Below, in pieces: positions 5,499 to 24,980 of a stretch of DNA of 64,000 bases. The translations under genes and the position numbers were made by a program. Origin of the DNA: a virus; IMG/VR virus record IMGVR_UViG_3300019877_000058, positions 2,557 to 66,556 of that record. One strand, written 5' to 3'. The number at the start of each line of letters is the position of its first letter. Position 1 is the stretch's first letter. The notes below the pieces were generated by a model that saw only the letters and a program-made list of their open reading frames with translations, was not told the DNA's origin and ran no database searches.

Positions 5499-6086
5499 TT
5501 ATTTCCTCGCGAAATTGGACGGACCGTCCGGATCCAGGATCGAGCGCAGCGAGGCGAAGCGCTTCTCGGCCTCGGTCTTCATCTTCATCGCCTCGTTGTG
5601 CAGGTCGTCGAGGATGGTATGGCGCGAGTTGAGCTCGGCCTCATGCGCGTTGGCTGCTGATTCGCGCGCGGTGACGTCCTGCTCGCGCTTGCGCAGGTCC
5701 TGGTCGGTGGCGCTCTGACGCGCGTTCAGCGCCGCGTTCTCCATCGCCAGCTGGCGCTCGCGCTTCTCGAGATCACCCTTGGCCTTGGCGACCGCGTCCT
5801 GGTGATGGGCGGCGTCCTGGATCAGCTTGTCGTGCGCGGCGCTGGCCTCGCTGTGGCGCCTGGAGATCTCAGCCTCGCGCCTCGAGCTCTCGGTGGTAAA
5901 GCCCGCCATCTTCTCGTTCAGCTCGTACAGCGCCTTGTTATGGGCCTGGGTAGCCTGTTCCATCGAGACCTGGGCGGCACCAAGTGCGGCGAACTTGGCC
6001 TTGGCCAGTTCCGGGTCGCCGAGGATAGTCAAAAGCGACATCACGGCATTGGAGCTGTCGCTGCCCGGAGGCGAGGAACCCATCAT
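5499..6086 (-). CDS. Coiled-coil protein
   Basis: 195 aa with heptad-like E/R/A/Q-rich helix; GAGGT SD. Confidence 0.75.
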   Translation of the reverse strand: MMGSSPPGSDSSNAVMSLLTILGDPELAKAKFAALGAAQVSMEQATQAHNKALYELNEKMAGFTTESSRREAEISRRHSEASAAHDKLIQDAAHHQDAVAKAKGDLEKRERQLAMENAALNARQSATDQDLRKREQDVTARESAANAHEAELNSRHTILDDLHNEAMKMKTEAEKRFASLRSILDPDGPSNFARK

Positions 6087-6098
6087 GACGGAAATACC

Positions 6099-6458
6099 TC
6101 AGGTGTTGGTGATGAAATCGATCTTGACCTGGACCTGGTTGTTTCCGGAGCCATTGCCGTTGGTCGGCACGCCCTTGAACTCGGTCTGGTTGGCCGCAAA
6201 GCGCTGATTCGTCGCCGCTGCAGCTGGAGCCGGAGGAGTCCCAACCGTACCGAAGCCGAATAGAACCGAACAAACGCCGTCCGTGTGAATTCGAACGTAT
6301 TTCGTCCCCGGATTTAAGGCTGCGGTGATTTGGTGCCCGCCGCTGATGTCACCGGTTTTTTGCTCGGCAAGCTTGCTGTTCTCATCCGGCATCTGACCGG
6401 CATCGCCAGCGAGCTGGGTCAGCTGGGCATATTCGGCGATGTAGGCGAAGACGGCCAT
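6099..6458 (-). CDS. Conserved small phage protein (possible capsid decoration)
   Basis: 119 aa; YIAEYA...AEQ...YVRIHTDGVCSVLFG...RFAANQTEF pattern recalled from rhizobial phages; GAGGGA SD. Confidence 0.7.
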   Translation of the reverse strand: MAVFAYIAEYAQLTQLAGDAGQMPDENSKLAEQKTGDISGGHQITAALNPGTKYVRIHTDGVCSVLFGFGTVGTPPAPAAAATNQRFAANQTEFKGVPTNGNGSGNNQVQVKIDFITNT

Positions 6459-16661: not shown

Positions 16662-16983
16662 GGCGAGCTTTCCTCATCTCGATGTAGCGCTCGAATTCAA
16701 CGATAAACTGGTCAAGCTCCTGCTGAATCATCGATAGTCGGTCCATGTCCTTTTGGGTCGGCTCGGCGCCCGGCTCCATCACGCCCATCATACTGCCAAA
16801 CAGGTGCTGGGCGCCGGCGAAAAACGCCACCCGCATTTCCACCAGTTGGATCTCAGGAGCGCCATCCTTGATCGACATGTGACGCATTCCCTGCCAACCA
16901 GCCTCGATCAGCTTGCCTTCGTCGGTGAGCTGCCTGGTCACATCGTCGATGATTCTCTTCAGCTCCGGGGTCATCGGTTTCAT
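16651..16983 (-). CDS. Hypothetical protein
   Basis: 110 aa; W.......AP..Q..EMR.AFFAGAQHLF motif. Confidence 0.75.
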   Translation of the reverse strand: MKPMTPELKRIIDDVTRQLTDEGKLIEAGWQGMRHMSIKDGAPEIQLVEMRVAFFAGAQHLFGSMMGVMEPGAEPTQKDMDRLSMIQQELDQFIVEFERYIEMRKARREH

Positions 16984-17396
16984 TCGACGATCACCCAGTC
17001 CTCAGAGAGCAGGTCCGTCTGTGACGCTATCCATGGAGCAACGGTGCCCTGCGCGCTCTTGATATCGATGTGAGGGTGACATTCCACCCGGGTGCCGATC
17101 GGCATGGCCTTGGCAAGCGGGTGGCCGGCCCCGACGATGAGGGTCGATCCCGGTACCCGGAATAGGAACTGATTCTTACCGTTCCAGCCGGAGCGCGCCA
17201 CCCGGCGACCCTCGTGGAGTGCCATCAGCGCGTGGCCGAAATTCATTTCCCCGCTCTTGCGGTAAGCTTCCTCAAAGGTTGCTCGCGGGCTCCAGGATTT
17301 GTAGCCATCCTCGTAAATCACCTGGTAGCCGCTGTTGCCGTCCTTCTCCTGGGGCTCGGCTTTGATTCGCTTGGTGCCGTAATAGACTTCGCTCAT
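16980..17396 (-). CDS. tad2: DUF2829 / Thoeris anti-defence Tad2-like protein with N-terminal extension
   Basis: MNFGHAL...GRRVARSGWNGK...IKSAQGTVAPWIASQTDLLSEDW, a canonical DUF2829 signature; N-terminal GY.V.Y.DGY.SWSP...FEEAY module. Confidence 0.88.
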   Translation of the reverse strand: MSEVYYGTKRIKAEPQEKDGNSGYQVIYEDGYKSWSPRATFEEAYRKSGEMNFGHALMALHEGRRVARSGWNGKNQFLFRVPGSTLIVGAGHPLAKAMPIGTRVECHPHIDIKSAQGTVAPWIASQTDLLSEDWVIVE

Positions 17397-18504: not shown

Positions 18505-18691
18505 GATCGCGCCTCCTGATCATATGAAGCACTGGCGGCTCACCGGTCATGACCTCGATGTCGATGCTGATGCGGTCAAAGCCGAGGTCCCTCAGCCGCT
18601 GGCGGAACTCGTGCACCGGGATCAGACCGGCGCGGTATAGCTCCCGCGCACGGTTCACCCGAAAGCACATCACCACGTAGACCGGGGTCAT
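18491..18691 (-). CDS. Hypothetical protein
   Basis: 66 aa; coupled. Confidence 0.55.
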   Translation of the reverse strand: MTPVYVVMCFRVNRARELYRAGLIPVHEFRQRLRDLGFDRISIDIEVMTGEPPVLHMIRRRDHAER

Positions 18692-18894
18692 ATCGAAATG
18701 CTGTCAATGCTTGCTGACTCGGCCTCGCGTTTGCGATGCTCGCCGGCGTACCACATCGGCAGCAACACCATCTCGCCATCGGGCGCCACCGCGACCGCGT
18801 GCTGACGCGAGGGGCTGACCACGATCAGATAGTCGCGATGGAAGCAGTAGCGATCGAGCGGGCCGATCGTGTAACCGTGAATGACCTCAGGCAT
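18688..18894 (-). CDS. Hypothetical protein
   Basis: 68 aa from ATG 18894 with GGAAGGA SD. Confidence 0.6.
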   Translation of the reverse strand: MPEVIHGYTIGPLDRYCFHRDYLIVVSPSRQHAVAVAPDGEMVLLPMWYAGEHRKREAESASIDSISI

Positions 18895-18915
18895 CGCTCT
18901 TTCCTTCCCAAAATC

Positions 18916-19163
18916 GGCGAGGGGCAGCCGGCTAAGCAACCCCTCGCCTGTCCGCCCAGGGCGACCAACGTGTGCGTCGCTGGCCTCCTTGACGGCATCA
19001 CCCTGTCGCCAGGGTGTCTCGAATTAGCTCGGCGGAGACCTCAGCTCCGGGGTGGCGCAGGTTTCCGGATCATCGGCCTCCGCCTACTCTGCCCGCTCCG
19101 ACGCGCCAACGGGTGGCAGAGGTCTCGAATTAAACTGACGGGAGAGGCACCGCTCCCCTCCCG
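18916..19163 (-). ncRNA. Candidate structured cis-regulatory RNA or ncRNA (six hairpins, duplicated TAATTCGAGAC)
   Basis: Stems 18916-24/18940-48, 18961-65/18976-80, 18999-19005/19010-16 (GCGA loop), 19031-37/19078-84, 19087-93/19115-21, 19139-47/19155-63; motif at 19016-26 and 19122-32. Confidence 0.55.
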
Positions 19164-19174
19164 CCCATCCCTGG

Positions 19175-19203
19175 AAAAAGGGGGAGGGGGACTTACCCCT
19201 CCC
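19175..19203 (-). terminator. Intrinsic terminator after the DUF932 gene
   Basis: GGGAGGGG/CCCCTCCC 8-bp stem followed by a TTTTT tract on the minus strand. Confidence 0.75.
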
Positions 19204-19229
19204 AAGTCGCCCTTCCTCTCGGGAAGCTC

Positions 19230-20114
19230 TTAAGCCGCGTGGCTCTTGATCTTGGCCATCTCGTCGGCCAGCGTCCATAGCGCACGATTGAGGCGAACGT
19301 CACCGTCGACCGAGCGAACCGGGCGGGTGTGACGCTCGATCCGACGCACCGTGCCGTCCTGAAGCTCCTTCTCGTCGGTGTAGGCGATACCACCGCGAAT
19401 CACGTTCTCCTGGACCCGGTTGAAGGTGGTCCACAGATCATTCTCGGTGTCGCCGTTACGGCGCGGGATCAGCAGCTGAGCCGGGGTCACCGGCGCCTCG
19501 GTATCGAAACGGGCGATCGCGGCGGAAGCGGCGAACGCCATCTGCTCGTCGCGGTTAAGCTGGATGCGGCGCAGGTTGTCGATGCCGTCGTAGGCAAGCT
19601 GGCTCTGGCCGATCACAGTGAAGGCGGCGTCCACGACCTGCGGGATGATGTTGCCTTTGTGCGGGATCGCGATCTTGACCGCGCCCTCATCGAACCAGAT
19701 CGTGCCGTTCTTGCACAGCGCGCGGTAGAAGCCACCGAACATCTGGTAGGACGTGGTGCCGTCATGCGAGCCGAGCAGGCAAACTTCGTAGACGGTGCCG
19801 CCGCGACCGACCGAGGCGTCCTGCCGGAACCGGATCAGGTGCTTGGTGTAGCCGCGCTTGTCTTCGAACTTCGACCCGCCCTGCATGATCGAATGCGGAT
19901 GAAACCCCTCACTGGCGAGCGCCTGCAGGACCTGCAGCGTCGAGATGAAGGTGTACTTGTCGGAGCGGGAGGAGTGCTTGTCCTCGGCGAAGACGGCCGG
20001 ACAGCTGCGGGCGATGGTGGGAAGATCGAGAGCCTGACCGTTGCGGGCCTCGAGGACCACGGAGCCGCGGCCGAATTTTGCGTAGTGATGGGTCGAACCG
20101 GAGGAAATCTGCAT
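19230..20114 (-). CDS. DUF932/DUF945 family phage/plasmid protein
   Basis: HSSRSDKY.FI.T...GF......KH.IRFR...SHDGTTSYQM..G.YR..C.NG...DLWTTFNRVQEN..RGG...LNRALW. Confidence 0.9.
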   Translation of the reverse strand: MQISSGSTHHYAKFGRGSVVLEARNGQALDLPTIARSCPAVFAEDKHSSRSDKYTFISTLQVLQALASEGFHPHSIMQGGSKFEDKRGYTKHLIRFRQDASVGRGGTVYEVCLLGSHDGTTSYQMFGGFYRALCKNGTIWFDEGAVKIAIPHKGNIIPQVVDAAFTVIGQSQLAYDGIDNLRRIQLNRDEQMAFAASAAIARFDTEAPVTPAQLLIPRRNGDTENDLWTTFNRVQENVIRGGIAYTDEKELQDGTVRRIERHTRPVRSVDGDVRLNRALWTLADEMAKIKSHAA

Positions 20115-20180
20115 TTGGGAACTTCCTTCTTTTGCGGGCCGGGATGGCCCTGAGCATCTTCTAGTCGCGCTTCCAAAAAC

Positions 20181-20198
20181 TGTCAATGCTCATTGACA
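20181..20198. promoter_or_regulatory. Palindrome TGTCAATG-CT-CATTGACA (operator and/or back-to-back -35 boxes)
   Basis: Perfect 8-bp inverted repeat upstream of the DUF932 gene; the same consensus occurs at 25025-25042. Confidence 0.65.
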
Positions 20199-20206
20199 AC
20201 TTATTT

Positions 20207-21709
20207 TCAAACCTCGTAGTCCACGGAGACGTATTTTCCCTCTTGGCGTTTGAAATCTAACGACAATCTGCAGGCGTAGCCAAGCTCATCAAATCTCGCC
20301 TTGCGGTGATAGAACTGGCACTCGGTCCTGATCGCGCCCTTCTCGTACATCTTCGGTCGATGCACCGTAAAGCCTTGATCGCACACGTTGTCCCAGTGCT
20401 TGGCGCCGGCAATATCCTCCAATGTTGGAGCCTGCCCTCGGCGAGGGCCTTCCATCTTCGCTGGATGCGCCAGCACCTGGACGTGGCAGTTCATGTCGGT
20501 TGCAAACTGATAAAGCGTGCGCAGACAACGCAGTACATACTCATCGTCGCGCTCGCCGTTGCCGCGTGATGATTCAAACCGGTTCCAAGGGTCGGCCTGC
20601 ACGATCCGCACCCCGTGACGAATCACCGCAACCTCGGCCATCTCGAGAAACCACTCCAGCGTCGGCCGGTTCTCCTGGTGCACCAGGAAAAAATAACGCT
20701 CGTTGATCCAGGCATCGGCGTTGGCGCGCTCGTCGTCGGTCATGTCGCGCTCGAGCTTTTGATTGATCAGGGTGCGCAGCTGCCGCCGGACGTGCGGCTT
20801 CGGCCTGGTCTCGAACGAGGCACCGCAAAAGCCAACCTCGTAACGCTTGATCACGTTGAACCAAAGCTGGTTCCATAACGCGGTCTTGCCGTGCCCAGGG
20901 TGCCCAGTGACAACGCTGAGCGTTCGCGGCGCCAGCAGGACCTTGCGTTCCCACTCATCGAAGCCCGGGTTCCAAAGCGTCATCGGGGACGGCTCAGGAA
21001 GCTCGCTGAGGCGGTAGATACCGGTGACCGGCCATGGCAGGCTCCCATCCTGAATTAACTCACCCAGCGCCTCCGCGCCGTCGCTGAGGAGCATATCGTT
21101 GGCGTCCTTCACCCCCTCCGGCCACTCAACAAACCAGAACCTGGCTGCCCCGAGCAATTTGACCATGTCGTCGCGCAGGATGCGCCCGGCGCCATCGCCG
21201 TCACCGCACCAGACGAACCGACTAACCTTGCTCAAGCCGGCCTTCAGCGCCTCCTCAACGTAATCGTAGCCCGCGAGTTCCCGAGGATCGCCCTCAGTCG
21301 GCTTGTCCTTGGCGCCATGCGCGCCGAGCACCTGCGAAACCGGTATACCGGCTTCGACCAGGGCGCAGGCGTCGAGCTCGCCCTCGACGATGTAGACCAC
21401 CTCCGAACCACCCCGCAGCACGCGATCCAGGTTCCAGAACGAGCGCTTGAAGCCACCCCCGGAGACGAAATGCTTGTCCGGATAGGCGCGCGCCTTCCAA
21501 CCCTCAGCGTAGCGGAAAAATACCGCCGGCAGCTTCTCGCTGACGTCAGGGAAGAACGCCGTACCGCTGCCGACGTCGAGCTGCACCAAAGTCGCCGGGC
21601 TTAGGCCGCGGCTTTCCTTGAACCACTTGAGCGCCGGTAAAGCGATTTGAACCAACCCGCCAGCCAATGGGCCAGCCGCAGTTGTGGCAGTACGCTGCGA
21701 ACCCGTCAT
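20207..21709 (-). CDS. Toprim primase-SF4 helicase (T7 gp4/Twinkle-like) lacking the Zn-binding domain
   Basis: IVEGELDA, GDGDGAG, KDANDML (Toprim); TGHPGHGKT Walker A; IVQADPWN; LAHPAK; start uncertain. Confidence 0.92.
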   Translation of the reverse strand: MTGSQRTATTAAGPLAGGLVQIALPALKWFKESRGLSPATLVQLDVGSGTAFFPDVSEKLPAVFFRYAEGWKARAYPDKHFVSGGGFKRSFWNLDRVLRGGSEVVYIVEGELDACALVEAGIPVSQVLGAHGAKDKPTEGDPRELAGYDYVEEALKAGLSKVSRFVWCGDGDGAGRILRDDMVKLLGAARFWFVEWPEGVKDANDMLLSDGAEALGELIQDGSLPWPVTGIYRLSELPEPSPMTLWNPGFDEWERKVLLAPRTLSVVTGHPGHGKTALWNQLWFNVIKRYEVGFCGASFETRPKPHVRRQLRTLINQKLERDMTDDERANADAWINERYFFLVHQENRPTLEWFLEMAEVAVIRHGVRIVQADPWNRFESSRGNGERDDEYVLRCLRTLYQFATDMNCHVQVLAHPAKMEGPRRGQAPTLEDIAGAKHWDNVCDQGFTVHRPKMYEKGAIRTECQFYHRKARFDELGYACRLSLDFKRQEGKYVSVDYEV

Positions 21710-23627: not shown

Positions 23628-23659
23628 GCCTCGGGGCGGCATGGAAACTACCCCGAGGC
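23628..23659 (-). terminator. Hairpin just upstream of the rusA SD (attenuator or terminator)
   Basis: GCCTCGGGG/CCCCGAGGC 9-bp stem then TCTTT. Confidence 0.5.
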
Positions 23660-23691
23660 CCTCCCATTCCCACCCGTCCTAACTCAGGCTT

Positions 23692-23798
23692 GGGCTTTAC
23701 CCCGGGGGAATTTCAAAAAGGGGTCGCGCCCGATGATCAGTCCGCGCGACCCCAATACTCCCACTCTCCTCGAGCTGGGGCTTTATCCCCGGGGAATT
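23692..23798. repeat. 21-nt direct repeat GGGCTTTA(C/T)CCC(G/C)GGGGAATT flanking a terminator
   Basis: Copies at 23692-23712 and 23778-23798, 19/21 identical. Confidence 0.8.
23715..23753 (-). terminator. Intrinsic terminator after the GapR-like gene
   Basis: GGGGTCGCGC/GCGCGACCCC perfect 10-bp stem plus TTTTT. Confidence 0.8.
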
Positions 23799-24597
23799 AC
23801 GACGGCGATGCGGCCTTGCGCGCGAATGCGCTGTCGGGGCCGGATCCGCCTTTCTCTGCTTTTTCCGCTTCCGCCTTGGCGGCGAGCTCCTGCTGCAGGG
23901 CGAAATCAGCCCGCGACATCCGCAGGCCGCTGGTGATCGGCGCGTCGCCAGCGCCTGATGTCGCTTTTTCCGCCTGCTTTGGAGGCTCAGGCTCAGCTGC
24001 GGCGGTCTTGCCGATGCCGGCCTTGAGCTGCTTGGTCTGCACCTCGTGATAGCCGCGCATGAACTCGCGGTGCTGCTCGGTCGCCATGTCGTAACCAGGC
24101 TTGGCGGCCAGGTGCTGCATCGCTGCGTTCTGACCCTCCTTGTAAGCGCGATCGACCGCGGGGACGCGGGACGGCTCCTGGAACATGTCGAGCTGTTCGC
24201 CGAGGTCCGCGTCGAGGAACTGTGCGATCTGCAGCTGGCGAACCATCTTGGCCTTGGTCTTGGCTTCCTTTTCCGCGGTCTCGAGCGCGAGCCCCATATC
24301 AAAATCAGCCTTCTCGAACCCGTCGGCCTTGGCTGTCTTGTACAGCAGGCGCAGATCCGAAACTGCCGAAGCGACCCTGTCCCTCTGCTCTTTGATCTTG
24401 GGGAGGTGGTGCTTGAAGAGGTCCTTTTCTTCCGAGTTTGTCAGCTGCACGCGGACCGGCGCCGGCTCCTTGGGGGCCTTCTCGGCCTTCGGGGGCTTGG
24501 CGGCCTTAGGCGGCCTCGGCGCCTTCGCGGCCTTTGGCTTCGCGGGGCCGGCCGTCTTCCGGTTGTTCTTGTCGGCTGATTTCGGCTTTTTGGCCAT
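23797..24597 (-). CDS. GapR/DUF2312-like nucleoid protein with histone-H1-like N-terminus and RMF-like segment
   Basis: KPKAAKAPRPPKAAKPPK arm; SDLRLLYKTAKADGFEK GapR-like core; AYKEG...PGY...FMRGYHE. Confidence 0.65.
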   Translation of the reverse strand: MAKKPKSADKNNRKTAGPAKPKAAKAPRPPKAAKPPKAEKAPKEPAPVRVQLTNSEEKDLFKHHLPKIKEQRDRVASAVSDLRLLYKTAKADGFEKADFDMGLALETAEKEAKTKAKMVRQLQIAQFLDADLGEQLDMFQEPSRVPAVDRAYKEGQNAAMQHLAAKPGYDMATEQHREFMRGYHEVQTKQLKAGIGKTAAAEPEPPKQAEKATSGAGDAPITSGLRMSRADFALQQELAAKAEAEKAEKGGSGPDSAFARKAASPS

Positions 24598-24710
24598 GAG
24601 GCGCTCCTGGTTGATGATGATGGTGTTGGGAGGGGTGACCCATCACGATACCCCTCCCAACTAGACGCCGCGCCCGGGCTTCGGGGGCTGGGTGAGGATG
24701 GACCCGGCGT

Positions 24711-24980
24711 CTATTCGTACAGATGCGGGGCTAGCACCTTTCGCGGAATTCCAAAGGCCTTTTCGGCCTGAACCACATATTTGTCAGGGAACCGGCCGCG
24801 CCAATTGGCGTGGATGGCCTGGCGCGATGTCCCCAAGGCTTTTGCGATCTGGGGGATTCCGCCAGCCTTTTTAACGCAATAGGCAAACCAGACCTCAGGC
24901 GGGAGACCAGGGTTAGGCTTGCCCTTCTCGTTGAAAAGCTGGCTATCCCAGTCAATCTTCACAACTTTTGGTGCGCTCAT
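24711..24980 (-). CDS. Cro/YdaS-like HTH regulator
   Basis: AGGIPQIAKALGTSRQAIHANW...P.KYV...EKAFGIPRKVLAPHLY; GGAAGGA SD before ATG 24980. Confidence 0.85.
   Translation of the reverse strand: MSAPKVVKIDWDSQLFNEKGKPNPGLPPEVWFAYCVKKAGGIPQIAKALGTSRQAIHANWRGRFPDKYVVQAEKAFGIPRKVLAPHLYE

Follow-up and report, generated by a model that had tools for sequence, protein, structure and literature searches.

The long leftward (minus-strand) transcription unit of an uncultured soil phage, represented by IMG/VR virus record IMGVR_UViG_3300019877_000058, passes from replication genes to small accessory genes across a gap of 335 nt, and the question raised by this locus is what the gap contains. The window analyzed here is a stretch of 64,000 nt that makes up most of the 67.5-kb record (G+C content ~62%); the gap (18895–19229) lies in it between a DUF932 gene and the gene of a 68-residue protein, gp68. 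An initial annotation, made from the sequence alone, had placed on the minus strand of this region a terminator, a further hairpin, two identical 11-mers spaced 106 nt apart and a series of stems, and all of these parts are present where it put them. The repeated units among them are copies of a real, conserved structured RNA module that is new to the catalogues. The earlier description is correct; the suggestion made with it, that the element serves antitermination, is not supported.

A tandem structured RNA between DUF932 and gp68

Region 18895–19229 is non-coding. In a test of GC content by codon position, the candidate open reading frames (ORFs) that overlap the gap are flat, as against ~0.62/0.44/0.78 at positions 1/2/3 for real genes here, which bears out the earlier remark that no convincing ORF is present. 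Folded against shuffled sequences, the sense strand scores z = −3.9, with none of 100 shuffles as good, and the antisense strand z = −2.35. Read 5′ to 3′ on the minus strand, to which all coordinates of the region refer, the gap comprises a hairpin (H0), an intrinsic terminator (T1), a second hairpin (H2), and two tandem units of ~106–117 nt that each open with the leader UAAUUCGAGAC. The two leaders (19122–19132 and 19016–19026) correspond to an exact 11-mer, TAATTCGAGAC, found at these two positions 106 nt apart and nowhere else in the 64 kb, even with one mismatch allowed. By themselves, two exact 11-mers are only modestly unlikely by chance; it is the comparative data that make the feature solid.

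Unit 1 (19027–19132) is of a two-hairpin or A type. Its leader, predicted to be single-stranded between two stable helices, is followed by hairpin PA (19087–19121; 7-bp stem CUCUGCC/GGCAGAG), the dinucleotide UA, and the terminal hairpin P3 (19031–19084; GGCGGAGGCC/GGUCUCCGCC). Unit 2 (18910–19026) is of a three-hairpin or B type and consists of leader, P1 (18999–19016; GCGA loop), a single A, P2 (18949–18997), P3 (18916–18948) and the tail GAUUUU. The 7-bp stem that had been reported directly after each 11-mer, in one case with a GCGA loop, was found in both units, and the perfect 9-bp stem reported just before the Shine–Dalgarno (SD) sequence of the first accessory gene is the basal stem of the second P3 (18916–18924 with 18940–18948).

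The B type can be written as leader UAAUUCGAGA(C), P1 (CACCCUG/CAGGGUG, free loop), a single A, P2 (UGCCG.../...CGG-ACA), P3 directly after P2 (GGCGAGRGG/CCYCUCGCC, with a loop of 13 to ~100 nt), and a tail that ranges from U6 to no U-run; the A type has the same leader, one hairpin, UA, and P3. Units range in length from 93 to 193 nt with a period of 106–115 nt, and adjacent helices stand 0–2 nt apart. The AU-rich, conserved and unpaired leader of 10–11 nt is nearly invariant across unit types whose internal hairpins are wholly different, and the units of one array share mainly this leader and the helix bases. P3 has a conserved base, GGCG...CGCC, below a freely variable loop: the GGCG start is present in 19 of the 19 P3 and H2 hairpins examined, and positions 5–9 covary. 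Stem sequences are conserved besides their pairing, those of P1 and P2 included. The P1 loops differ among units (GCGA, GCUACGAG, GCACAAUA, CCGAC, UGGUC). When folded singly, all 15 of 15 units leave the leader unpaired and form the expected helices.

Relatives were reached through DUF932 and gp68 homologs in a large protein collection, which led to metagenomic contigs; by this route of sampling, the linkage between array and gp68 is partly built in. There are nine distinct metagenomic relatives. One further contig (L006) is the same phage, identical and uninformative, and over the region L022 duplicates L017, L025 and L026 duplicate L024, and L028 is the same contig as L019. For eight B units, RNAalifold gives 27 pairs, nine of them with compensatory (double-sided) changes. 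In this alignment 94.9% of cells are paired, against 40–49% when the partners are slid by 1–3 columns, and none of 500 shuffles reaches the observed covariation. A covariance model built from the eight units (R1) scores unit 2 at 90 bits (E = 4e-23). It also picks up three more units of greater divergence; the window, the complete virus record and the other loci hold no other match. In the resulting 11-unit alignment 95.0% of cells pair (39–45% when slid) and 12 of the 27 pairs change on both sides (1–5 when slid, and 0–5 across the slid controls of the two alignments); as the alignment is fitted to R1 and the units are mutually related, these figures are supportive rather than formal probabilities. 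The initial annotation had named the absence of conservation and covariation in related phages as grounds for abandoning an undescribed structured non-coding RNA with a repeated leader motif; both were found, and they support it.

Among the eight training units, G·U cells number 19 and A·C cells one. With such a bias only the gene-sense strand can adopt the fold, an indication that RNA is the selected molecule, and judging from these alignments it is the sense-strand RNA structure that is under selection. The same observation bears on a DNA-level element, such as a replication origin, a single-strand initiation signal or iterons near replication genes. DnaD-like, primase/helicase and DUF932 genes do adjoin the array, an 11-mer is repeated, and the hairpins could form in single-stranded DNA. 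G·U wobble pairs are frequent, however, the motif is not palindromic and has at most three copies, the units are dispensable in close relatives, and in two loci (L029 and L030) the array goes with gp68 and not with the replication genes. We regard a function at the DNA level as the least credible of the readings considered here.

The module matches no catalogued family. The Rfam scan proposed with the initial annotation was run with Rfam 15 and returned no match in the window at gathering thresholds; in permissive mode the top matches reach 14–18 bits against thresholds of 38–90. In the window, and in six loci besides, ARAGORN detects no tRNA or tmRNA. Neither GenBank phages nor PLSDB plasmids gave a BLAST match to the region, and tblastn of gp68 against phages was likewise negative; in IMG/VR, scans with the two-leader pattern, the P1 motif, gp68 alone and a gp68 alignment showed no other contig that carries the region or gp68, and a motif scan of metagenomes returned L022 alone, of the same lineage as L017. 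As yet the RNA module is confined to one small clade of soil phages, all of them uncultured. What is described here is a conserved, tandem and modular folded RNA of ~105 bases, previously uncatalogued. Phage non-coding RNAs are poorly catalogued, especially outside the phages of enterobacteria, and here there is a compact family that is backed by covariation, has a covariance model, and follows a clear grammar in each unit: first the leader, next one or two hairpins, and last the terminal hairpin.

Unit turnover and the terminator cassette

The number of units per phage is 0, 1, 2 or 3, and every array found sits directly 5′ of a gp68 homolog. In the window, H2 is followed by two units. L018 has the window's two units behind a different upstream gene, with a tRNA-like minihelix in place of H2. 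Three units are present in L017, L024 (where the tail of the last P3 is U6) and L029, two in L030, and one, directly after T1, in L031. In L029 and L030 the array stands behind two other small genes rather than DUF932; these arrays lie inside an operon, and no terminator was detected adjacent to them. Short forms without any unit (L019, L020/L021, L027) have T1 and H2 and then, within ~20 nt, the ribosome-binding site of gp68. Compared with these, the units are inserted exactly between TAATT and TTGAGG. The unit 1 type also occurs in L018 and, in a diverged version with the compensatory stems CUUCGC/GCGAAG and GGCGCAG/CUGCGCU, in L029. The array occupies the same position in phages whose gp68 is just 66–70% identical. 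In the sampled loci the array goes with gp68, and the locus is a further case of RNA modules gained and lost at phage module boundaries.

In both L029 (3464–4134) and L030 (453–1156), a gene of 157/168 codons and a 66-codon gene are inserted between the DUF932/T1 cassette and the array, which makes the module boundary a hot spot of gene gain.

The elements 5′ of the units behave differently from the units. T1 (19173–19203; the stem-loop itself 19182–19203, plus a U5 tail) has an 8-bp G+C-rich stem, a 6-nt loop and the tail CCUUUUUCC, and closes the replication module. A terminator is found at its position in all relatives, including L029 and two contigs (L002 and L003, DUF932 73% and 57% identical) that have other downstream genes; in the latter two there is only a terminator. 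Between the DUF932 stop codon and T1 lies H0 (19212–19226), a 5-bp hairpin CUUCC-CGAGA-GGAAG that travels with T1 and is conserved in relatives, with a compensatory U–A to C–G change in L018 and L029; its loop is GUGAG in L017. H0 and T1 follow DUF932 in L029 with another gene next, and therefore belong to the end of the replication module. H2 (19137–19165) is an 11-bp hairpin of the P3 type that begins GGCGGGAG. Its tail is U-rich in the short forms, where it has the look of a second terminator; in the window, the array cuts the tail short. A scan for intrinsic terminators, defined as a G+C-rich stem-loop with a U-run, returned T1 and H2 and flagged no P3, that of unit 2 having just GAUUUU and that of unit 1 no U-run, so that the terminator feature holds for the cassette and not for every unit. 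The first description of the element is amended accordingly in two respects: a further conserved hairpin, H0, precedes T1, while H2 and the stem that closes each unit are hairpins of one type; and T1 and H0 are part of the upstream gene's cassette, not of the repeat array.

Copies of H0 lie at 2156–2170 in L018 and 3388–3402 in L029. The cassette of H0 and T1 stands behind DUF932 or, in L018, behind a phrog_1362 gene, and the sequence GCYGCUUAAG, which contains the stop codon, is conserved even with the different upstream gene.

In sequence the leader is similar to the genuine ribosome-binding junction of gp68 (UAAUUUGAGGAG), as the motif GAUGCC is to the start-codon context of that gene. This suggests that the units arose by duplication of a segment made up of hairpin, ribosome-binding site and start. 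The helix upstream of the leader is P3, H2, T1 or, in L018, a tRNA-like acceptor stem. The latter belongs to a minihelix without anticodon arm (2212–2268 of L018) that replaces H2 and comprises an acceptor stem of 7 bp, a hairpin like a D arm, a T arm of canonical form (GGGUUCAAGUCCC), a discriminator G, and a CCA that abuts the first leader. ARAGORN does not detect the minihelix; Rfam gives a sub-threshold match to mascRNA (22.6 bits against 42.5; E = 0.025 in a 361-nt search).

With such an origin, the array might have no function for the phage: it would be either a relic of duplication or a selfish, palindromic repeat like REP, BIME or MITE elements, kept by recent ancestry and unequal crossing-over. 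BIME/REP elements, the pneumococcal BOX and the rhizobial RIME are modular, hairpin-forming intergenic repeats, dispersed in tens to hundreds of copies per genome. The array resembles them in being modular, hairpin-forming and intergenic, with a variable number of modules. The unit junctions (TAATT/TTGAGG) are short repeats, the leader and GAUGCC recall the start of gp68, close relatives dispense with the units, and another optional hairpin insert occurs at 24.6–24.7 kb. Unlike those repeats, however, the array is confined to one locus per phage genome, always beside the same neighbor, and R1 finds no copy elsewhere in the 67.5 kb. Its position is constant in phages with gp68 only 66–70% identical, and compensatory changes in three helices together with the bias of G·U over A·C speak for an RNA fold kept by selection rather than for neutral decay. 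Across 185,579 species genomes the two-leader pattern gave 10 matches against ~8 expected by chance, in unrelated taxa and with none in high-G+C alphaproteobacteria; single units in host genomes were not searched. We consider a functionless repeat improbable.

Candidate functions of the array

The second possibility that the initial annotation had offered, a small RNA that is processed and bears a repeated motif for recognition, is viable and is now our leading hypothesis. In the form that we tentatively favor, at somewhat less than an even chance, stable RNAs of ~100 nt would lie within the early leftward transcript, be excised at their AU-rich leaders in the manner of DicF, and act in trans. 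The array would be one segment of the early polycistronic RNA of the leftward unit, placed after the replication module's terminator cassette and before the first of the accessory genes. A scan for sigma-70-like promoters found none in the arrays of the window, L024 and L029; having no detectable promoter of their own, the units are probably made as part of a leftward transcript that would pass through T1 and H2. An endonuclease of the RNase E type would then cut in the leaders, and each product would start, at the 5′ end, with what remains of the leader and finish, at the 3′ end, with P3. Cleavage in the leaders is proposed because these are AU-rich, unpaired and always flanked by stable helices. 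Unpaired AU-rich linkers between stable helices are where RNase E usually cuts and where tRNA-punctuated processing usually takes place, and the CCA-ending minihelix that abuts the leader in L018 counts for processing in the same way. The near-invariant leader part CGAGAC and the conserved helix bases suggest sequence-specific recognition.

The model for this reading is DicF of the Escherichia coli Qin prophage, which is cut from the dicBF operon just upstream of the small-protein gene dicB (PMC10448788). Like the array, DicF is a non-coding RNA in a repressor-controlled early operon, has no promoter of its own, and directly precedes a small-protein gene, here that of gp68 (68 residues). It differs in being one RNA, 53 nt long and unrelated in sequence, as against 0–3 tandem units of ~105 nt with 2–3 helices, for which processing is predicted. 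The product of dicB has 62 residues.

Several points weigh against processed RNAs. Leader cleavage is inferred from context. Most internal P3 tails are U-poor, so that the units would not end by termination. Some close relatives have no unit at all, and whatever the array does is therefore dispensable. Conservation of the leader could in part reflect duplication from the ribosome-binding junction of gp68. Finally, sites complementary to the leader occur in the phage at chance level: there are eight scattered 8-mer matches, against ~3 expected, and none at ribosome-binding sites.

The U-poor tails are also awkward for the main rival reading, a cis-acting leader that would serve as insulator, stability element or both. 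Without any trans product, it would tune the lifetime of flanking mRNAs as well as read-through into the accessory operon. The array is always directly 5′ of the ribosome-binding site of gp68, H2 belongs to the same hairpin type as P3 and looks like a terminator in the short forms (AGUUUUUUU in L019), and the last P3 often has a U-run (GAUUUU in the window, U6 in L024). Variable copy number would suit quantitative tuning, and a separate optional two-hairpin insert, at 24615–24710 and absent from L022, occupies another spacer of the same operon. Multiple terminators within the long operons of mobile elements are a described design (PMC8955417); as in such tandem terminators and insulators, several G+C-rich hairpins stand at a module boundary in a long transcription unit, and H2 and some P3 hairpins have U-rich tails. 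The array differs in its conserved unpaired leaders, its conserved internal helices and its internal tails, most of which are not U-rich. Plain terminators or stabilizers need neither an invariant unpaired leader of 11 nt nor conserved P1 and P2 stem sequences with compensatory changes, and the arrays of L029 and L030 lie inside an operon, where no terminator was detected. On this evidence a purely cis-acting role is a serious possibility, but a doubtful one.

The natural variants with 0, 1, 2 and 3 units in otherwise near-isogenic phages form a ready allelic series for distinguishing action in cis from action in trans. If the units are only insulators, the finding is an ordinary one; if they are decoys, or RNAs that are processed and act in trans, and the phage infects an alphaproteobacterium of soil or symbiosis, the biology of DicF and pseudo-ToxI would reach a new group.

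Decoys are the subject of a further reading, in which the units are RNA sponges at the head of an anti-defense gene block that titrate a host protein (a defense nuclease, an RNA-binding regulator or RNase E) through the leader and helix bases. The tandem multiplicity of the units, their fast gain, loss and swapping between close relatives, and the conservation of stem sequences rather than pairing alone are what such decoys would show. A Tad2-like gene (16980–17396) lies 1.5 kb downstream of the array in the same operon, and Tad2 is also found downstream in L018, L020, L027 and L030. The first array position is taken in L018 by the tRNA-like minihelix, which on this reading would be a decoy as well, and pseudo-ToxI offers a precedent for RNA mimicry by a phage (PMC3475682). 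Set against this, the two-leader pattern occurs in bacterial genomes at chance level, no similar repeat being found by that pattern; the neighboring gp68 is acidic and has no recognizable RNA-binding fold; and the reading names no specific partner protein. We think decoys unlikely. The same low estimate applies to the fuller picture of an RNA for counter-defense or host takeover, a string of decoys at the head of the accessory (anti-defense) operon that would be cut at the leaders, include an anticodon-less tRNA mimic in one lineage, and owe its unit turnover to an arms race.

Pseudo-ToxI and the ToxI antitoxins of type III systems resemble the array in more than mimicry: they too are tandem direct RNA repeats of variable copy number directly upstream of a protein gene, with a conserved short motif at unit boundaries that is a possible cleavage site (PMC3475682). 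ToxI repeats are ~36 nt long and near-identical, in contrast to diverged units of ~105 nt here (PMC3475682). A type III toxin–antitoxin locus was rejected: the period is 106–115 nt, no gene of the ToxN/AbiQ, CptN or TenpN family lies downstream, and gp68 occurs without units. Across known families, type III antitoxin repeats are 34–45 nt long, and the ToxN-family endoribonuclease has roughly 170 residues. Compared by eye, the leader fits none of the other short elements considered, namely repeat handles of type I-C CRISPR, T-loops, CtrA/CcrM sites and alphaproteobacterial −10 elements.

There remains antitermination, either by a protein-free put-like RNA or by an N/nut-like one, which would give read-through in the ~19-kb accessory operon. 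HK022-type put RNA binds the zinc-binding domain of the RNA polymerase β′ subunit and makes the polymerase resistant to terminators. With T1, H2 and another at 23.7 kb, the leftward operon has strong terminators that call for some mechanism of read-through, and adjacent helices are 0–2 nt apart, as in put. The put RNAs of HK022 are ~70 nt long, have two stems, and lie just after the early promoters, ahead of the terminators that they suppress (PMC9378689). The units share with putL and putR, which are protein-free structured RNAs, their place in a phage early transcript and the near lack of linkers between helices, but they are tandem, dispensable in relatives, and located behind two terminators, at a distance of ~5.8 kb from the early control region, which is divergent and lies at ~25.0 kb. 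Against a put element of the HK022 type stand a length of 93–193 nt, an unpaired 10-nt leader, two (A) or three (B) helices, and a location 3′ of T1 and H2. As for lambda-type nut sites, boxB would be a 5-bp stem with a conserved, purine-rich, GNRA-like pentaloop; the P1 loops vary freely, and the CGAGA loop of H0 is GUGAG in L017. A search of 18895–19260 for boxA (GCUCUUUAACAA-like, up to three mismatches) gave no match. The scan shows no strong minus-strand terminator in the downstream accessory operon, the units are missing from L019, L020 and L027, which retain T1, have H2 as a strong terminator and continue with the same genes downstream, and the arrays of L029 and L030 have no detected terminator beside them. 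A gating role in antitermination, as first proposed for this element, therefore finds little in its favor: the units stand downstream of T1 and H2, are missing in close relatives, and have neither put nor nut architecture. We judge it highly improbable.

Neighboring genes and other hairpins of the operon

The leftward transcription unit begins at the divergent control region near ~25.0 kb with a cro-like helix-turn-helix ORF (24712–24979, minus strand), followed on the same strand by a GapR-like gene, rusA, a DnaD-like loader, the primase/helicase gene of the replication module (20207–21709), and the DUF932 gene (19230–20186; Pfam PF06067, E = 4e-34), the last of that module. Among cultured phages, the DUF932 and primase/helicase proteins have distant relatives only. 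After the DUF932 gene the unit continues with ~30 small genes, the Tad2-like gene among them.

The first accessory gene and constant right-hand neighbor of the array is that of gp68 (18688–18894, minus strand; 18688–18909 with its SD region, GGGAAGGAAAG). Its products form a family of conserved acidic proteins of 66–70 residues (MPEVIHGY...LPMWYAGE), for which ten clusters are known, all metagenomic. No match to gp68 was found in Pfam or PHROG. The predicted model has six short β-strands, with a pLDDT of ~90 over residues 1–45, and a comparison with Protein Data Bank folds gave nothing above Z 4.3 and no informative match.

Three other places attracted attention in the course of the analysis. 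A boxB-like hairpin, AGGCC-GAAAA-GGCCT (24755–24769), lies inside the cro-like ORF, where it encodes Q-A-E-K-A-F, and is probably a coding coincidence. The optional insert at 24615–24710 (minus strand), between the cro-like ORF and the GapR-like gene, is a 92-nt pair of hairpins (z = −3.7), the second of which shares the 12-mer UUGGGAGGGGUA with T1. In L022 the two genes are ~25 nt apart and the insert is missing, and the pair was rejected as a conserved put-like antiterminator on account of this absence. At 23640–23800 (minus strand), between the GapR-like gene and rusA, two direct repeats of 21–26 nt, (U/A)AAUUCCCC(C)GGGG(A)UAAAGCCC, stand on either side of a 10-bp terminator and have no more than AAUUC in common with the leader.

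Outside the clade, a contig of a Pseudomonadota metagenome-assembled genome (L009, JBCCCO010000029.1) contains seven or eight iterons, ATTCGAGACTYTAGGAAC, in a low-G+C intergenic stretch (6070–6300). The contig is among the 10 matches of the two-leader pattern in species genomes; the iterons contain the leader core and are probably an unrelated origin or operator.

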